Part shown: positions 3,631-18,457 of the stretch, in pieces | Position numbering within the stretch: position 1 is the first letter of the stretch | Layout of the letters: every line of letters starts with the position of its first letter | Origin: a virus | Strand: one strand, 5' to 3' | Virus genome (UHGV): UHGV-0172241 | DNA length: 36,373 nt | Program-made: the position numbers and the translations under genes | The notes under the pieces: model-generated | Told to the model about the DNA's origin: nothing | What the model saw: the letters and a program-made list of their open reading frames with translations, nothing else | Database searches by the model: none

Positions 3631-4380
3631 ATGCAAGCATTACAAACAAAATCAAACATCGGAGAAATGTTCAACATACAAGAAAAAGAAAATGGAGAAA
3701 TCGCAATCAGCGGTCGTGAGCTTCATCAAGCTTTAGAAGTTTCAACTAGGTACGATAAGTGGTTCGAAAGAATGACGGAGTATGGTTTTGAAAACGGGAT
3801 AGATTTTATTTCGCAAGTTGAAAAAGTACACGGTCAAAAAAGGGCGCGTACTTATGAACAAATTAATCATATTCTCACATTAGACACTGCAAAAGAAATC
3901 GCAATGATTCAACGTAGTGAACCAGGTAAACGTGCAAGACAATACTTCATTCAAGTAGAGAAAGCATGGAACAGTCCAGAAATGATTATGAAACGTGCAT
4001 TGAAGATGGCTAATAACACAATCAACCAACTGGAAACACAAATTGAGAAAGACAAACCTAAAGTATTGTTTGCTGACGCAGTAGCAACAACTAAAACTTC
4101 TATTTTGGTAGGGGAATTAGCAAAAATCATTAAACAAAATGGTGTCAATATAGGACAACGAAGACTGTTTAAGTGGTTACGACAAAATGGTTTTTTAATA
4201 AAACGTCAAGGCGTCGACTATAACATGCCAACACAATACTCAATGGAACGAGAATTATTTGAAATCAAAGAAACGTCAATTACTCATTCAGACGGTCATA
4301 CATCAATTAGTAAGACCCCTAAAGTAACAGGTAAAGGGCAACAATACTTTATTAACAAATTTTTAACAAATGAACTATAA
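3631..4380 (+). CDS. ant: phage antirepressor (Bro-N/KilA-C type)
   Basis: The N-terminal ...ISGRELHQALEV..YDKWFERM region resembles AntA/Bro-N antirepressor domains common in staphylococcal phages. RBS GAAAGGAG upstream. Confidence 0.8.
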   Translation: MQALQTKSNIGEMFNIQEKENGEIAISGRELHQALEVSTRYDKWFERMTEYGFENGIDFISQVEKVHGQKRARTYEQINHILTLDTAKEIAMIQRSEPGKRARQYFIQVEKAWNSPEMIMKRALKMANNTINQLETQIEKDKPKVLFADAVATTKTSILVGELAKIIKQNGVNIGQRRLFKWLRQNGFLIKRQGVDYNMPTQYSMERELFEIKETSITHSDGHTSISKTPKVTGKGQQYFINKFLTNEL

Positions 4381-12482: not shown

Positions 12483-13145
12483 GTGGTAGTTTTGATTAAA
12501 GAAAATCTGATAGGAAATAGGTACGGAAAGTTAATCGCTAAAGAACGTTTAATCAAAGAAATCGGTAAGGCTAAAACAAAGACTGCATATTACAGATGCA
12601 TTTGCGACTGTGGAGAAGAAAAGGTTGTAAGGAACGACAAGTTAAAGAACGGACAGACACGGTCATGTGGGTGTGAAAGAAATTTAAATCTTGTAAATAA
12701 AACTTTTGGAAAATTAAAGGTATTGAAGAAATTAAAAATCAAAAATAGAACTATGTATCTGTGTTTATGTAAATGCGGTAACAAAATAGCTGTAAGAAAC
12801 GATAGTTTAATGAGTGGTAAGACACAAAGTTGCGGTTGTTTAGTATACGAAAATTCAATTAGACGAACTCACAACAAAAGTAATACTAGGTTATATCGTA
12901 TTTATCGACATATGATAGACAGATGTTATAACTCAAACAATAACAGATGGAAAAGATACGGCGGTAGAGGGATAACAATTTGTGACGAGTGGCGAAATGA
13001 TTTCGAAACTTTCTATGAATGGGCGGTTAACAATGGATACAGTAAAGAATTATCAATAGATAGGATTGACAATAATGGGAACTATGAACCATCGAATTGC
13101 AGATGGGCTACAGCAAAACAGCAAGCCAACAACAGAGGATACTAA
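12483..13145 (+). CDS. HNH/AP2-like DNA-binding protein with duplicated N-terminal Cys4 repeats
   Basis: Two repeats of the G-x-YGKL...C-x-C-x-CG...V-R-N-D...SCGC pattern. The C-terminal ...[24 protein letters not shown]... region resembles the AP2/HNH_3 domain. Confidence 0.55.
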
Positions 13146-13648: not shown

Positions 13649-14065
13649 ATGATAGTTATTCAAAAGCATGACATCAAGAAGCTTGAAGACTACATAAAGA
13701 ATATAGAGGAATACCGCAAAGAATTTCTGATGCGTGGATATGAGTTAATGGAAAACCACGAGCCAGAGAATGTAGGTGCTGGCAAGAGTAATTTACCGGG
13801 AAATCCTATTGAGAGAGAGACGGTTAAGAAGTTGAGTGATAATAGATATGTAATGCTGCGCAACGTGGTCAAAGGTGTAGATAAGCTTATATTTGAAGCT
13901 GACGAAGATACTAAAGACTTAATACGATTAAGATACTGGGAGTGTCCTATTGGATGCTACGAATGGGAAGACATCGCTAACTACTTTGGTATTAGTAAAA
14001 CGAGTGTATTAAGACGTAGAGATGCGATGATTAGTAGGTTAGCCGAGTTTATAGGATACGTATAG
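13649..14065 (+). CDS. rinA: RinA/ArpU-family late-gene transcriptional activator
   Basis: 138 aa, immediately upstream of terS. The C-terminal ...ISKTSVLRRRDAMISRLAEFIG region is a sigma-70 region-4-like HTH typical of the RinA family. Confidence 0.7.
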   Translation: MIVIQKHDIKKLEDYIKNIEEYRKEFLMRGYELMENHEPENVGAGKSNLPGNPIERETVKKLSDNRYVMLRNVVKGVDKLIFEADEDTKDLIRLRYWECPIGCYEWEDIANYFGISKTSVLRRRDAMISRLAEFIGYV

Positions 14066-14090
14066 CGGACTTTTGAGGTATGTAAGTCCG
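14066..14090 (+). terminator. hairpin after rinA (weak terminator or attenuator)
   Basis: Stem CGGACTT/AAGTCCG with an 11-nt loop and a poor U-tract (GTTTG). Confidence 0.35.
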
Positions 14091-14301
14091 GTTTGAAAAG
14101 GCTTATCATGGTATTGTGAACGAACCGCCGTAACAAGACGTTGTCTTATGGCAGAGACTTCACAAGCTAATGGTATTTTTAGTTTATATGTTCGTCTCCT
14201 AATAAATTATGTTTAACTCCTATTAAGCTATTCGTGAGCAAACACGAGTAGCTTTTTAAATTTATAAAAAGATAATATCGTGAGAGTTGGTGGTAAATGA
14301 A

Positions 14302-14730
14302 ATGGGCAGAAGAACATTATATGAAAAATTAGATATAAAAGATAAACTAGATCTTGTTGAGGGATGGAAACGTGATGGTCTCACAGACGAACAAATAGCG
14401 CGAAATTTTGGCGTTAATTTTAAAACGGTTATGAAATGGAAAGAAGACCACTCGGAGTTTATGGAGGCCATAAAAAAGGGCAAAGAAGTTTCTGATTATG
14501 AATTAGAAAACGCATTGCATAAGAGAGCTACAGGCTACTACTACGAAGAAGAAACAGTCACTAATGCAGGTAAGGTTGTCAAAGTTAAAAAGTACGAGCA
14601 TGCTAACCCTACGTCACTTATATTTGCACTTAAAAACAGATTGCCGCACAAATACAGAGATAAAGTAGAACAGGAAATCACAAACCGTAACTTCGAAATT
14701 AAAATAGGTGATTATGATGACGAAAGTTAA
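14302..14730 (+). CDS. terS: terminase small subunit
   Basis: Position immediately before terL. An HTH-like N-terminus (..GLTDEQIARNFGVNFKTVMKW..) is typical of TerS. The track ORF starts at 14287 (TTG). The ATG at 14302 is the more likely start. Confidence 0.8.
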   Translation: MGRRTLYEKLDIKDKLDLVEGWKRDGLTDEQIARNFGVNFKTVMKWKEDHSEFMEAIKKGKEVSDYELENALHKRATGYYYEEETVTNAGKVVKVKKYEHANPTSLIFALKNRLPHKYRDKVEQEITNRNFEIKIGDYDDES

Positions 14731-16174
14731 ACTGCGGTTTGACAATCCCGCTAAAGTATTCAATCGTAATATATTTGATGTACTGTTCGATTACGATAAC
14801 TTTACTGAAGTGCATTATGGTGGTGGTTCAAGTGGTAAATCGCACGGGGTTATACAAAAAGTTGTGCTTAAAGCATTGAAAGATTGGAAGTATCCTAGAC
14901 GTATATTGTGGCTTAGAAAAGTTCAGTCTACAATTAAAGATAGTTTGTTCGAAGATGTGAAAGCATGTTTAATAAACTTTGGGATTTGGGATATGTGTCT
15001 TTGGAATAAGACTGATAACAAAGTAGTGTTGCCAAACGGCGCAGTTTTTTTGTTTAAAGGATTGGATAACCCAGAGAAAATAAAGTCGATTAAAGGTATA
15101 TCAGACATAGTGATGGAAGAAGCGTCTGAATTCACATTGAATGATTACACACAGTTGACATTGCGTTTGAGAGAACGCAAACACATCAACAAACAAATAT
15201 TCTTGATGTTTAACCCGGTTTCTAAATTGAACTGGGTTTATAAGTATTTCTTTGAGCATGATGAACCGATGGAAAATGTCATGATTAGACAATCTAGTTA
15301 TCGAGATAATAAGTTTCTTGATGAGATGACGCGTCAAAACTTAGAGTTGTTAGCAAATCGTAACCCTGCTTATTACAAAATATATGCTTTAGGAGAATTT
15401 GCGACACTTGATAAATTAGTTTTTCCTAAGTATAAAAAAAGACTGATTAACAAACAAGAGTTACTACATTTGCCCTCTTATTTCGGAATAGATTTCGGTT
15501 ATGTCAATGATCCTAGTGCGTTTGTTCATGTAAAAGTTGATACAGAAAATAAAAACCTCTACATTGTGGAAGAATATGTAAAAAAAGGTATGCTAAACAA
15601 CGAGATAGCCGACGTTATAAAAAATCTGGGATACTCAAAAGAAGTTATAACGGGGGATAGTGCAGAACAAAAAAGTATAGCAGAGATTAGTAATCACGGC
15701 ATATCACGTATTAGACCGGCTTTAAAAGGTAAAGATAGTATAATGGCTGGCATACAATTCCTTAGTCAATTCGATATCGTTATAGATGAACGTTGCTATA
15801 AAACTCTAGAGGAATTCGACAATTACACTTGGAAAAAAGATAAAAAAACAGAAGAATATTATAACGAACCCGTTGACACATACAATCACTGTGTAACAGG
15901 AGATACATTGATTAACACTACATCTGGAGCTAAGCCAATAAAAGAATTGGTAGGCACAGAAGGTAGTGTTTTTTGTTATGACGAAATAAATAAAGAAAAA
16001 GTAACGTCTAAATATTTTGATGTGCGTAAGACGAGAGAACAAGCTCTAGTATTCGAAATAGAAACGGAGAGTGGCAAGAAATTTAAAGCTACTAGTGATC
16101 ACTTAGTGTTAACCAAAGACGGTTGGAAGATGCTGAAAGAGCTGAATGTAAATGACGAAATAATAAAAGTTTAA
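14708..16174 (+). CDS. terL: terminase large subunit N-terminal part (N-extein 14708..15889) fused to an intein N-terminal splicing domain (15890..16171), closed by an in-frame TAA
   Basis: ATPase Walker A motif GGGSSGKS is present. The nuclease-region motif ...EPVDTYNH is followed by the intein block A CVTGDTLINTTSG and block B ATSDHLVLT. Confidence 0.85.
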   Translation: MIMMTKVKLRFDNPAKVFNRNIFDVLFDYDNFTEVHYGGGSSGKSHGVIQKVVLKALKDWKYPRRILWLRKVQSTIKDSLFEDVKACLINFGIWDMCLWNKTDNKVVLPNGAVFLFKGLDNPEKIKSIKGISDIVMEEASEFTLNDYTQLTLRLRERKHINKQIFLMFNPVSKLNWVYKYFFEHDEPMENVMIRQSSYRDNKFLDEMTRQNLELLANRNPAYYKIYALGEFATLDKLVFPKYKKRLINKQELLHLPSYFGIDFGYVNDPSAFVHVKVDTENKNLYIVEEYVKKGMLNNEIADVIKNLGYSKEVITGDSAEQKSIAEISNHGISRIRPALKGKDSIMAGIQFLSQFDIVIDERCYKTLEEFDNYTWKKDKKTEEYYNEPVDTYNHCVTGDTLINTTSGAKPIKELVGTEGSVFCYDEINKEKVTSKYFDVRKTREQALVFEIETESGKKFKATSDHLVLTKDGWKMLKELNVNDEIIKV

Positions 16175-16892
16175 GAGGTGTCGTTAATGCAAAAGTACGT
16201 TTATTTCAATGGTATGAAATTCACTAGAGATGAAAATACAGGGTATTATCTCAATTCTACTAATAGAATTAGATTACATCGGTATGTATGGGAGCAAACA
16301 CACGGGAAAATTCCTAAAGGCTATCATATCCATCATATTGACGGGGATAAAAGAAATAACGATATTTCTAACCTAATGATGTTAACGCCTACCGAACATC
16401 TCTCATATCATGGGAATAAGCGCGCTAGTGAAAATTACGAGACAATAGTGAAAAATCTCGATTTAAATGCGCGTCCTAAAGCGAACGAATGGCATGCCTC
16501 AGAAAAAGGTAGAGAATGGCACAAAAAACACTACAACGATATGAAAACTAAATTACATAAAGAAACGGAGTTTAAATGCGAACAATGTAACAAACGCTTT
16601 ATTGCAATTAACAATGGTAAGAATAGATTTTGTTCAAATAATTGTAAATCTAAATGGCGTAGAGTTAATGGTTTGGATGATGTTATTAAGGAGTGTGTGT
16701 ATTGTGAAGGAAAATTTACTTCAAACAAATACAGCAAAAGAAAAACATGCAGTAGAAGATGCGCTAACAAACAAAGAACCGAAGACAGAAAAAATAAAGA
16801 GTATCAAGTTTCATAGTATTCAAGATGTTTACAATATGGAAGTTGAAAAATATCATAACTACGCTGTTGAAGGCGGGTTAATTATTCATAAT
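15890..16892 (+). other. intein (Hint N- and C-terminal splicing blocks with an embedded HNH endonuclease) inserted in the terL nuclease motif. 1003 nt, not a multiple of 3
   Basis: N-terminal Cys1 (tgt at 15890-15892). C-terminal ...VYNMEVEKYHNYAVEGGLIIHN (ending at 16892) followed by the +1 Cys of the extein motif CIDALRY. Removing 15890..16892 restores the canonical TerL motif DTYNH-C-IDALRY. Confidence 0.75.
16187..16816 (+). CDS. HNH homing endonuclease encoded inside the intein, with its own RBS
   Basis: Strong SD AAGAGGTG (16173-16180) 6 nt before the ATG at 16187. HNH motif ...HIHHIDGDKRNNDISNLMMLTPTEH... and C-terminal Cys clusters (CEQC...C..NC, CVYC...C..RC). Confidence 0.8.
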   Translation: MQKYVYFNGMKFTRDENTGYYLNSTNRIRLHRYVWEQTHGKIPKGYHIHHIDGDKRNNDISNLMMLTPTEHLSYHGNKRASENYETIVKNLDLNARPKANEWHASEKGREWHKKHYNDMKTKLHKETEFKCEQCNKRFIAINNGKNRFCSNNCKSKWRRVNGLDDVIKECVYCEGKFTSNKYSKRKTCSRRCANKQRTEDRKNKEYQVS

Positions 16893-16994
16893 TGCATAGA
16901 TGCACTTCGATATAGCGTTGAAATGTTAATGATAAACAATAAAAAACAAAAGAAAAAAGCTAGTGATTTACGAAGAATAAAAAATATGTTTTAA
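16602..16994 (+). CDS. terL: intein C-terminal splicing block (about 16795..16892) plus TerL C-extein (16893..16991), in a +1 frame relative to the HNH ORF. No canonical start codon near the block
   Basis: The frame-0 ORF contains ...IKSIKFHSIQDVYNMEVEKYHNYAVEGGLIIHN|CIDALRYSVEMLMINNKK... Upstream of about 16790 this frame merely overlaps the HNH ORF. Confidence 0.5.
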   Translation: MQLTMVRIDFVQIIVNLNGVELMVWMMLLRSVCIVKENLLQTNTAKEKHAVEDALTNKEPKTEKIKSIKFHSIQDVYNMEVEKYHNYAVEGGLIIHNCIDALRYSVEMLMINNKKQKKKASDLRRIKNMF

Positions 16995-17005
16995 GGAGTG
17001 AGTAA

Positions 17006-18457
17006 ATGACTTTATACACAGTTGGTAACGTACAAGAAAAGTTTTCTCCAACAGCAAACGACGATTTTGTCGTCAATGATTTAGATGAGTTGTTTAAAGA
17101 CGATTATATAAGAAACTTGATTAGCAGACATAAGACAGAGCAGCTACCTAGATTGGAAATGTTAGAGGCGTATTACTTAAATAGAAACACTGACATTTTA
17201 ACTGGAGAGCGCCGTTTGAATAACAACGGAGACAAAGCAGACCACAGAGCAGTACATAACTACGCTAGATACGTTTCTAGATTTATAGTTGGTTATCTGA
17301 CCGGGAACCCTATCACAATCACGCACACGAACAACAAAACAAACAACAAGATTATTGAACTCAATGACAAGAACGACGCTGATGAAATAAACAGCGACTT
17401 AGCATTGAATTTGTCTATATACGGACGTGCATACGAGATTGTATACAGAGACATGAAAGATAATGACACATTTAGAGTGTTAGACCCTAAAAGTACGTTC
17501 GTTGTCTACGATAGCTCGTTAGACAAACGTGTTATAGCGGGTGTTAGATATTATGAAAAGTCAGATGCAAACAATATACCTACGAGCTATATAGAAGTTT
17601 ACACAGAACAAGACATTTATTATTTGCAAGTCAAAGACGGTTCTATTGTAGTAAATGATGTAGTTAAGCACTTCTACAATGAAGTACCTGTTATAGAATA
17701 CTTGAACGACCAATTCAAACAAGGAGATTTCGAGAACGTTATTTCTTTAATTGATTTATATGACGCCAGCCAATCTGATACAGCTAACTATATGTCAGAT
17801 ACTAACGATGCAATGTTAGCATTGATTGGTAATGCTGATTTAGACGGAGAAGATGCGAAAGCGTTTAGAGATGCAAACATGATCCACATCAAACCTTCGA
17901 TAAACGCTAATGGTGGAGAAGGCAAAGCTGACGCTAAGTATATTTATAAACAATATGATGTTTCTGGTTCCGAAGCATATAAAAAGAGATTGCAAAATGA
18001 CATTCACAAATACACAAATACACCGGATTTAAACGATGAAAATTTCAGCGGTATTCAATCCGGCGAGTCAATGAAATACAAATTGTTTGGACTTGAACAA
18101 GTTAGAGCAATAAAAGAGAGATTGTTTAAAAAAGGGTTGATGAAACGATACAAGCTACTTCTAAACAAAGTGAATATAGAAAGCTTGGAAAATCACGATT
18201 ATTCAGAGTTAAACATTGTATTCACTCCTAATCTACCGAAATCACTAAAAGAATCAGTTGAGATTTTCAACGATTTAAATGGTGGCGTTTCAGAAGAAAC
18301 AAGATTAGGTGTACTTGATATAATCAAAAACCCTAAAGAAGAAATGAAGAAAATGGAAAAAGAAAAAGAAAAGCAAATACAATCCCGTGACAACAGCGAA
18401 TACAGCAATCTAACAAACGATAACAAAGAAGATGTGAATATAGATGTCGAAGAGTGA
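17006..18457 (+). CDS. portal protein (SPP1 gp6-like)
   Basis: 483 aa directly after terL. RBS AAGGAGTGAG. Acidic C-terminus typical of portals. Confidence 0.85.
   Translation: MTLYTVGNVQEKFSPTANDDFVVNDLDELFKDDYIRNLISRHKTEQLPRLEMLEAYYLNRNTDILTGERRLNNNGDKADHRAVHNYARYVSRFIVGYLTGNPITITHTNNKTNNKIIELNDKNDADEINSDLALNLSIYGRAYEIVYRDMKDNDTFRVLDPKSTFVVYDSSLDKRVIAGVRYYEKSDANNIPTSYIEVYTEQDIYYLQVKDGSIVVNDVVKHFYNEVPVIEYLNDQFKQGDFENVISLIDLYDASQSDTANYMSDTNDAMLALIGNADLDGEDAKAFRDANMIHIKPSINANGGEGKADAKYIYKQYDVSGSEAYKKRLQNDIHKYTNTPDLNDENFSGIQSGESMKYKLFGLEQVRAIKERLFKKGLMKRYKLLLNKVNIESLENHDYSELNIVFTPNLPKSLKESVEIFNDLNGGVSEETRLGVLDIIKNPKEEMKKMEKEKEKQIQSRDNSEYSNLTNDNKEDVNIDVEE

Follow-up and report, generated by a model that had tools for sequence, protein, structure and literature searches.

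A large-terminase gene in three cistrons, with canonically split intein halves around a free-standing HNH endonuclease gene, in a staphylococcal prophage

The large-terminase gene (terL) described here belongs to a staphylococcal prophage, UHGV virus genome UHGV-0172241; the whole stretch of DNA analysed, 36,373 nucleotides (nt) in length, is called the window. With a probability of about three in four, this is a fractured gene of three adjacent cistrons on the same strand. The first encodes the amino-terminal part of the terminase (TerL-N) followed by the amino-terminal half of an intein (IntN), the second an HNH endonuclease, and the third the carboxy-terminal half of the intein (IntC) followed by the carboxy-terminal part of the terminase (TerL-C). 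The two intein halves would rejoin the terminase by trans-splicing, and the HNH protein would act in homing. This reading is carried by the anatomy of the locus, the exact extein junction, the conservation of the layout and of the splicing residues, and the purifying selection on the parts, each of which can be read directly from the window and its relatives. Since the layout is common to dozens of related phages, it is, judged by their genomes, a conserved design rather than a broken gene. The original prediction, made from the letters of the window, had recognised a free-standing HNH open reading frame (ORF), which stands; it had overlooked that the unit consists of three cistrons, with IntC and TerL-C in the +1 frame. 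All features of the window described below are on the plus (+) strand.

The first cistron and the insertion site

The TerL-N and IntN cistron corresponds to an ORF at 14708–16174 in the ORF list, open from a GTG at 14708. Its likely start codon is the ATG at 14714 or at 14717, preceded by AGGTGA. From position 14708 the ORF has 488 amino acids (aa) and a computed mass of 56.9 kDa; from the ATG at 14717 it has 485 aa, which is also the length of the TerL gene call in a 98%-identical relative. Pfam matches are found to Terminase_3 (1.2e-61), Terminase_3C (6.1e-39) and, covering the end of the ORF, Intein_splicing (profile positions 7–93 of 155). The N-extein (14717–15889) contains the ATPase domain and most of the nuclease domain, as seen in Pfam and in a global alignment to the TerL protein of Staphylococcus phage phi11 that reaches …DTYNH. 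It is followed by IntN (15890–16171, 94 aa), which by Pfam and by alignment with mini-inteins is the amino-terminal half of a class-1 HINT intein; its first residue, Cys1, lies in the block-A sequence CVTGDTLI, while block B reads TSDHLVLT. A TAA codon (16172–16174) closes the cistron at the canonical endonuclease-insertion and split site of inteins; both the bases and the ORF list bear out the position that had been proposed for this stop.

The inserted element comprises 1003 nt (15890–16892), which is not a multiple of three. With this length and the +1 shift it contains, a single ORF is impossible and one nonsense mutation cannot account for the arrangement, which has three reading units. 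Conceptual removal of nucleotides 15890–16892 joins TerL-N residues 1–394 to the C-extein and gives a TerL protein of 427 aa and 50.3 kDa, which aligns without gaps over the junction DTYNH/CIDALRYSVE to phi11 TerL (DTYNHCIDSLRYSVE). At the DNA level, an identity of about 81% to 56 phages of the phi11/80alpha/187 type ends at window position 15892 (megablast query position 1193), the codon for Cys1 starting at 15890. In the terL genes of phi11 and 80alpha, the insertion-site sequence is …GATACATATAATCAT/TGTATTGAT…, and these closest intein-less phages have no HNH gene between terL and the portal gene.

When IntN and the 35-aa core of IntC are joined, they align end to end with the Npu DnaB mini-intein (4o1r), over residues 6–142 of 142, and the two parts also align to the Ssp DnaB and Npu DnaE mini-inteins. 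The break between IntN and IntC is exactly at the canonical endonuclease-insertion and split site. All residues of a class 1 HINT intein are present: Cys1, the block-B Thr-x-x-His, the terminal His-Asn and a cysteine at position +1.

The stop/Shine-Dalgarno junction and the HNH cistron

Directly at the IntN stop, a Shine-Dalgarno (SD) sequence, AAGAGGTG, is located at 16173–16180, its first two A's being the last two bases of the TAA codon. A six-nucleotide spacer, TCGTTA (16181–16186), separates it from the ATG of the HNH gene (16187–16189). This arrangement had been proposed beforehand and is confirmed in each detail. The pattern GAGGTG-N4-9-ATG occurs eight times in the window, where 0.61 occurrences are expected, and none of 100 shuffled sequences reaches eight, so the combination of SD and ATG is not due to chance. 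The junction GTT TAA GAGGTG TC(G/A)TTA ATG is identical or nearly so in the three closest independent relatives, L009, L013 and L014 (related loci are designated by L numbers).

The free-standing HNH_3 gene, a putative homing-endonuclease gene (16187–16816, stop codon TAG at 16814–16816), encodes 209 aa with a mass of 25.1 kDa. In the ORF list it appears as 16178/16187–16816, in frame with the TerL-N and IntN ORF. It matches Pfam HNH_3 with an E-value of 6.3e-19 (67.8 bits, against a gathering cut-off of 24.8) and phrog_15471, HNH endonuclease, at 1.8e-48. The catalytic HNH (ββα-Me) motif region, as placed by Pfam and the family alignment, spans residues 29–71 (16271–16399), and residues H49, H50, N57, N58, N62, H71 and H75 are invariant in the family. 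By its ββα-Me motif the protein belongs to the I-HmuI-like HNH_3 endonucleases. The catalytic region is followed by two CxxC…CxxxC zinc-ribbon modules (16577–16762) resembling those of FCS and YacG proteins, which are presumed to bind DNA; their cysteines C131, C134, C149, C153, C170, C173, C188 and C192 are invariant. A profile search of the Protein Data Bank with the family gave marginal matches only, to I-HmuI (1u3e, E 0.38) and to an FCS zinc finger (2l8e, E 0.08). The best 120 homologues in a large protein database (49–98% identity) are all stand-alone proteins of 194–240 aa. In a tblastn search of deposited phages with the HNH protein as query, members of the family are found in or beside terL in many genomes.

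The position of the gene in the packaging module, and the occurrence of free-standing copies of the family between an intact terL and the portal gene, would also suit an accessory nuclease that works with the terminase in packaging, as in HK97-type and cos-type staphylococcal phages. Such accessory HNH proteins are short, belong to a different Pfam family (HNH, PF01844) and occur in cos phages, while the protein encoded here is an HNH_3 protein with I-HmuI-like motifs and zinc ribbons. The family occupies the classic niches of mobile elements (inteins, intron-like inserts and intergenic positions), and phi11 and 80alpha lack such a gene between terL and portal. We consider a packaging role of this kind quite unlikely.

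A group I intron nested in the intein-coding sequence, with RNA splicing that rejoins a contiguous mini-intein, would be another way to accommodate an HNH gene at this place. Group I introns are known in terminase genes of Firmicutes prophages (PMC2504315), and Exiguobacterium phage vB_EauM-23, L030 and L036 have members of the same HNH family in intron-like inserts, placed at exactly this terL codon. The 12 nt from the IntN stop to the HNH ATG, and the overlap of the HNH 3' end with IntC, leave no room for a ribozyme core; furthermore, the end of IntN is already the natural boundary of the amino-terminal HINT lobe. An Rfam scan of positions 15700–17100 gave no match at E ≤ 1. A nested intron was rejected for the window, and of the alternatives considered it is the most improbable.

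The third cistron

The third cistron, encoding IntC and TerL-C, is in the +1 frame with respect to the HNH gene. Counted from a GTG at 16704 it comprises 96 aa (16704–16994) and overlaps the HNH gene by 113 nt. Pfam Intein_splicing is matched over profile positions 106–155 of 155, and the protein also matches phrog_28563, a family annotated as 'unknown function' (6.7e-20). The IntC core (16788–16892), corresponding to the last 35 residues in the mini-intein alignment, has the sequence EKIKSIKFHSIQDVYNMEVEKYHNYAVEGGLIIHN; it contains blocks F and G and ends in His-Asn. The HNH stop codon (16814–16816) lies inside this core. Next comes the C-extein (16893–16991, stop codon 16992–16994), the first residue of which is the +1 cysteine of CIDALRYSVE…, so that the sequence across the border reads …EKIKSIKFHSIQDVYNMEVEKYHNYAVEGGLIIHN/CIDALRYSVEMLM…. 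The C-extein holds the conserved D-x-x-R-Y nuclease motif. In the overlap of HNH and IntC, a run of six A's, GAAAAAATAAAG, is present at 16789–16794; it is a potential slippage site, and the slippery motif is not conserved in relatives.

A candidate translation-initiation region for this cistron lies within the HNH ORF at 16688–16706, consisting of AAGGAG (16688–16693), a 10-nt spacer and the GTG at 16704. The alternative start codons, ATG at 16677 and ATG at 16680, have no SD sequence. All staphylococcal relatives have a GTG 41 codons ahead of the VY motif, and a gene call in S. saprophyticus (4015–4311, 98 aa, IntC and TerL-C) starts at the homologous GTG. The counterpart of the ATG-ATG pair is the annotated start of gp3 of Brochothrix phage BL3 and the amino-terminus of phrog_28563. 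In some relatives the IntC start is clear: in L074, an ATG overlaps the HNH TGA (ATGA); in L085, it is located two codons past an in-frame stop; L028, L032 and L039 have one ATG each, 22–28 codons ahead of the VY motif. A long +1 opening from 16545 is not common to the relatives, as L013, L015, L018 and L010 have stops 46–50 codons before the VY motif. GTG 16704 with its AAGGAG is the best candidate for the IntC start in the window, and the third start is the weakest link of the scheme.

In a scan of positions 14000–17300, promoter and terminator counts were no higher than in shuffled sequences, giving no evidence of an internal promoter. As there is no above-chance promoter or terminator inside the unit, co-transcription of the three cistrons is likely.

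Conservation of the layout in related phages

Relatives were collected by a scan of IMG/VR using an HNH alignment, which gave 80 loci, to which phage and prophage loci were added. The loci were sorted by tblastn of IntN, HNH and IntC, and stops and frames were traced afterwards; counts refer to about 46 distinct combinations of IntN and IntC, with 46 or 47 as the denominator. A scan of genome contigs with the single HNH protein gave just three distant loci from metagenome-assembled genomes (MAGs), in all of which the intein is contiguous; the alignment-based scan of IMG/VR yielded far more.

By this classification, about 46 distinct loci have the layout IntN, stop, HNH, IntC. Every close relative, with HNH identities from 98% down to about 45%, has a stop straight after IntN. 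The IntN ORF ends 92–106 aa after Cys1 in 44 of 46 loci, the exceptions being BL3 (121 aa, after a deletion) and L069. The position of the stop is kept while its codon varies (TGA in 24, TAA in 17 and TAG in 6), which answers the earlier call to compare stop and SD in relatives. In 40 of 47 loci the HNH gene begins with ATG, and in 29 of 47 its start is preceded by an SD core of 5 nt or more. These counts favour the view, already put forward in the original prediction, that the TAA and the SD reflect translational uncoupling and not a random nonsense mutation. A shared frame of IntN and HNH, also part of that prediction, does occur in the window; it carries no significance, since the relatives use frames 0, 1 and 2 about equally (17, 12 and 18 loci) and the shared frame of the window is thus incidental. 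With HNH as the reference, IntC is shifted to the +1 frame, except in L065, L074 and L083, where the shift is +2; IntC is never in the frame of HNH.

The residues needed for splicing are equally constant: Cys1 is present in 46 of 46 loci, the block-B TxxH in 45 of 46, and the terminal His-Asn with a Cys or Ser at +1 in all. Ratios of non-synonymous to synonymous substitution (dN/dS), calculated by the method of Nei and Gojobori for the window against L013 (dS 0.7–2.0), are 0.08 for IntN, 0.12 for HNH and 0.02 for IntC (0.02–0.10 for the IntC core). By this measure, purifying selection is acting on all three parts in their split state.

Two deposited complete phage genomes share the arrangement. 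Lactobacillus phage CL2 is laid out like the window: its TerL-N and IntN ORF ends in TAA, the HNH gene starts with an ATG 12 nt further on in the same frame, and the 3' end of that gene is overlapped by IntC with TerL-C in the +1 frame. In Brochothrix phage BL3, gp2 is TerL-N with IntN and gp3, annotated as "hypothetical", is IntC with TerL-C. The catalytic, amino-terminal part of the BL3 HNH gene (L093, 2218–2607) has been deleted, and a carboxy-terminal zinc-ribbon remnant without a start codon remains. The gene order TerL (with Intein_splicing, 484–498 aa), HNH, portal is found in the gene contexts of four homologues, from the 98%-identical relative, S. saprophyticus prophages, another NCBI genome and Aerococcus viridans. 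Contiguous intein ORFs, which the original prediction would have taken against itself if present in all close relatives, are confined to distant ones, namely Acinetobacter phage Highwayman, Clostridium phage phiCDHM19 and three contigs from gut MAGs.

These data bear on the possibility that the window contains a decaying intein in a defective prophage, with a random nonsense TAA, a random +1 indel, a terL pseudogene and a fortuitous SD. The contiguous, in-frame intein-HNH versions in distant relatives, and the location of the frame change near the indel-prone A6 run (16789–16794), would be in line with decay. Yet the stop position and the out-of-frame IntC recur in about 46 distinct loci whose synonymous divergence is saturated, dN/dS is 0.02–0.12 over all three parts, and the complete genomes of CL2 and BL3 have the layout. 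The SD motif is strongly non-random in the genome, and the variable HNH frame (17:12:18) means that the loci are not simple point-mutation derivatives of one ORF. The comparative data have largely refuted decay, which we regard as very unlikely.

Recoding, in which the TAA is read through and a +1 frameshift near the HNH stop then yields a contiguous, cis-splicing precursor, could draw on the shared frame of IntN and HNH with its 12-nt spacer in the window and in CL2, and on the +1 position of IntC relative to HNH in nearly all loci. Against this, the HNH gene is found in all three frames, and the spacers range from -4 to about 570 nt, with extra stops and sometimes two extra ORFs. IntC is in the +2 frame in three loci, in-frame stops lie 2–3 codons before the IntC ATG in several (L085, L032 and L028), and a conserved slippery site was not seen among the loci. 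Recoding is highly improbable, even slightly more so than decay.

The terminase fragments might also be held together by the intein halves as a non-covalent complex, with no splicing taking place. A fracture by an HNH gene (mobE) with functional non-covalent reassembly is documented for nrdA of Aeromonas phage Aeh1, as far as this is described where it is cited in PMC2677866, and a literature search yielded no splicing data for the present family. Residues required for splicing only are, however, conserved in 45–46 of 46 loci, the dN/dS of IntC is very low, and in such a complex a HINT domain of 130 aa would directly precede the D-x-x-R-Y nuclease motif. This is the least improbable of the alternatives, and still an unlikely one; trans-splicing is preferred.

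Related loci and neighbouring genes

Several relatives differ in the region between IntN and HNH. Most have a promoter-like element, (T)AGATAC, about 15 nt, TGnTATAAT and then an SD, in an IntN-HNH spacer of 30–56 nt (L010, L015, L018, L038, L043, L055, L057, L090 and others). The element is absent from the window (16175–16186) and has been lost independently in the clade of the window (window, L009, L013 and L014) and in CL2; in both cases exactly 12 nt are left and the HNH gene is in frame. In L045 (2422–2994), and also in L032, L075, L078 and L092, a cargo of about 550–570 nt is located between the IntN stop and the HNH gene, encoding two small ORFs, one of 62 aa that includes a ribbon-helix-helix-like sequence and one of 73 aa. 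In L069 (2699–3680) the intein ORF is open across the entire HNH gene, in a different frame, for about 197 codons. When the HNH gene is resampled synonymously, the intein frame stays open in only 1.2% of cases, which points to a contiguous intein within which an endonuclease gene is nested out of frame.

Members of the HNH family are also found without an intein. An intact terL with a free-standing copy 34–115 nt downstream, just before the portal gene, is present in L021, L026, L049, L072, L076, L079, L082, L084, L086 and L096, and these copies are a plausible precursor state for intein or intron invasion. Exiguobacterium phage vB_EauM-23 (L005, 2270–3180), L030 and L036 have an HNH-family insertion of about 900 nt and no intein at the same terL codon (…NNH/…/CDATRY…), in which the gene is preceded by about 220 nt rich in stop codons and followed by about 50 nt. 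From their sequence these insertions look like a group I intron, the splice sites of which could not be placed convincingly; an Rfam scan (E ≤ 1) of the Exiguobacterium locus gave no match.

Elsewhere in the window, an ORF at 12483–13145 encodes 220 aa with repeated cysteine-rich motifs (…CxCxCGxE…SCGC…) and a carboxy-terminal stretch reminiscent of HNH-type motifs. A Pfam search with it gave no significant match; it may be a second nuclease-like gene, immediately upstream of the packaging module.

Proposed mechanism

In the proposed mechanism, the three cistrons would be co-transcribed with the late packaging operon and translated separately, giving TerL-N with IntN (56.9 kDa), the HNH protein (25.1 kDa) and IntC with TerL-C (about 11 kDa, including the 33-aa TerL carboxy-terminus). 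The HNH protein would be translated from its own SD and ATG (16173–16189), while IntC with TerL-C would be initiated inside the HNH 3' end in the +1 frame, most likely at GTG 16704. IntN and IntC would then associate and trans-splice to a TerL protein of 427 aa and 50.3 kDa with the junction …DTYNH-CIDALRY…, for which the tryptic peptide over the predicted splice junction would be TEEYYNEPVDTYNHCIDALR. Splicing would restore the sequence around the D-x-x-R-Y nuclease motif, which is required for DNA packaging. The HNH protein, for its part, probably cuts the intein-less terL of co-infecting or resident phages at the conserved site, upon which the whole IntN-HNH-IntC cassette would be copied in. 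This homing role is suggested by the intein, intron-like and intergenic niches that the family occupies at or next to the same terL site.

Because the HNH 3' end would carry the ribosome-binding site and start codon of IntC, deletion of the endonuclease gene should kill terL. The state of BL3, in which the catalytic half of the HNH gene has been lost and the 3' end kept, would be explained by an IntC initiation region in that 3' end.

Several points weigh against this scheme, most of them at the third start. Between 16704 and the IntC core, no ATG, GTG or TTG is present in the window, and GTG 16704 itself arises as a by-product of a cysteine codon in the HNH frame and the G that follows. When the HNH codons are resampled synonymously, the +1 frame is open in 100% of cases from 16704, in 26% from 16677 and in 1.6% from 16545; being stop-free under any choice of synonymous codons from 16704, its openness there carries no information. 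The SD ahead of this GTG is weaker or missing in some staphylococcal relatives, for instance L013 and L015, and with about 63 aa IntC would be longer than the 33–54 aa reported by Dassa et al. (PMC2677866). The HNH ATG of CL2 has no obvious SD. Finally, a literature search yielded no experimental demonstration of trans-splicing or of HNH cleavage for any member of the family.

Implications

To our knowledge, natural split inteins are rare, and nearly all come from the dnaE genes of cyanobacteria or from metagenomic fragments of uncultured phages. They are important tools for protein ligation. The relatives described here amount to at least 45 distinct canonical natural split inteins in prophages and phages of Staphylococcus, Lactobacillus, Brochothrix, Aerococcus and relatives, which are tractable hosts in which trans-splicing, an essential virion-assembly enzyme made of two polypeptides, and HNH homing can be tested. 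The layout also explains recurrent mis-annotations, as a "truncated" TerL, an "HNH endonuclease" and an unannotated or "hypothetical" protein of 98 aa (phrog_28563).

More tentatively, and with more doubt than confidence, the locus may be part of a large family, as yet undescribed, of TerL inteins that are canonically split, functional and present in Firmicutes phages that can be cultivated, with an HNH gene that is hard to delete, with splicing as a possible checkpoint for the timing of packaging, and with the full evolutionary series envisaged by Dassa et al. If so, assembly of the packaging nuclease would depend on trans-splicing, making a post-translational timing checkpoint possible, and living phages would contain the series of intergenic free-standing gene, intron-borne gene, split intein, nested out-of-frame gene and in-frame intein domain. 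In a literature search, with many subscription papers outside its coverage, no paper came up that describes a split TerL intein with an HNH endonuclease for phages of Firmicutes. The value of the locus lies in a tractable split-intein family and a living series of associations between endonucleases and inteins, rather than in a new principle.

Comparison with known systems

The TerL inteins of phiCDHM19 (gp2) and Highwayman contain the same HNH_3/zinc-ribbon family (35–48% HNH identity by tblastn against the phage collection) in a HINT intein at the TerL nuclease-motif site. Theirs is a single ORF of 760–800 aa with an in-frame endonuclease domain, whereas the window has a stop, a separate SD and ATG, and a frame change. 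With the TAA at 16172, the +1 frame change and an insert of 1003 nt, the locus is not a contiguous endonuclease-containing intein.

In AceL-TerL and other atypically split metagenomic inteins, IntN is very short (about 25 aa) and IntC long. What they share with the window is the natural splitting of an intein encoded in a large-terminase gene of a phage; unlike them, the window has a canonical split of the DnaE/gp41-1 type (94 aa and 35–63 aa).

Group I introns with HNH ORFs have been described in phage terminase genes (Tourasse & Kolstø 2008, PMC2504315). In comparison with these, the window has neither non-coding space for a ribozyme nor an Rfam match, and repair would take place at the level of the protein. 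A 2025 preprint on inteins of actinobacteriophages covers in-frame HNH inteins and out-of-frame nested endonucleases; the TerL split-intein/HNH family of the window is not in it.

In nrdA/mobE of Aeromonas phage Aeh1 (Edgell and co-workers), to the extent that the system is presented where it is cited in PMC2677866, a free-standing HNH gene likewise divides an essential phage gene, giving two cistrons that are transcribed together, and the endonuclease 3' end overlaps the downstream cistron. By that same account, Aeh1 has no intein halves and its product is reassembled non-covalently, while here both fragments have complete, conserved intein halves.

The closest parallel is the fractured genes of Dassa, London, Stoddard, Schueler-Furman & Pietrokovski (Dassa et al. 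2009, PMC2677866), as the original prediction had proposed, and the match includes the way in which the 3' end of the endonuclease gene runs into the IntC ORF. In those genes an IntN of 88–105 aa is closed by a stop and followed by a free-standing endonuclease gene, the 3' end of which overlaps the IntC ORF by 6–69 bp, a hallmark of the class; in the model of these authors, the invading element supplies the upstream stop and the downstream start. In the window, too, two adjacent ORFs on the same strand reconstitute an uninterrupted TerL homologue, and a stop closes IntN (94 aa) where endonucleases are canonically inserted. Between the halves comes an endonuclease gene that stands free, has translation signals of its own and overlaps the start of the IntC ORF with its 3' end. 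The downstream ORF has the IntC motifs, the +1 cysteine and candidate start codons (GTG 16704 or ATG 16677/16680).

The published endonucleases are GIY-YIG or Vsr-like, HNH enzymes being regarded as possible but not observed (PMC2677866). With an HNH_3 protein bearing zinc ribbons in place of these types, the window locus is not a plain member of that class, and it bears out the expectation of 2009 that HNH genes can fracture intein-containing genes. The loci of that study are metagenomic, from uncultured marine or freshwater (phage-like) sources, and its one terminase locus has an atypical split with an IntC of 122 aa. Here the TerL split is canonical, the overlap is 113 nt if GTG 16704 is used, and the carriers include deposited complete genomes of Firmicutes phages as well as prophages. 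The novel features are thus the HNH type of the endonuclease, the canonical split of TerL and the wide spread of the arrangement in phages and prophages of Firmicutes.

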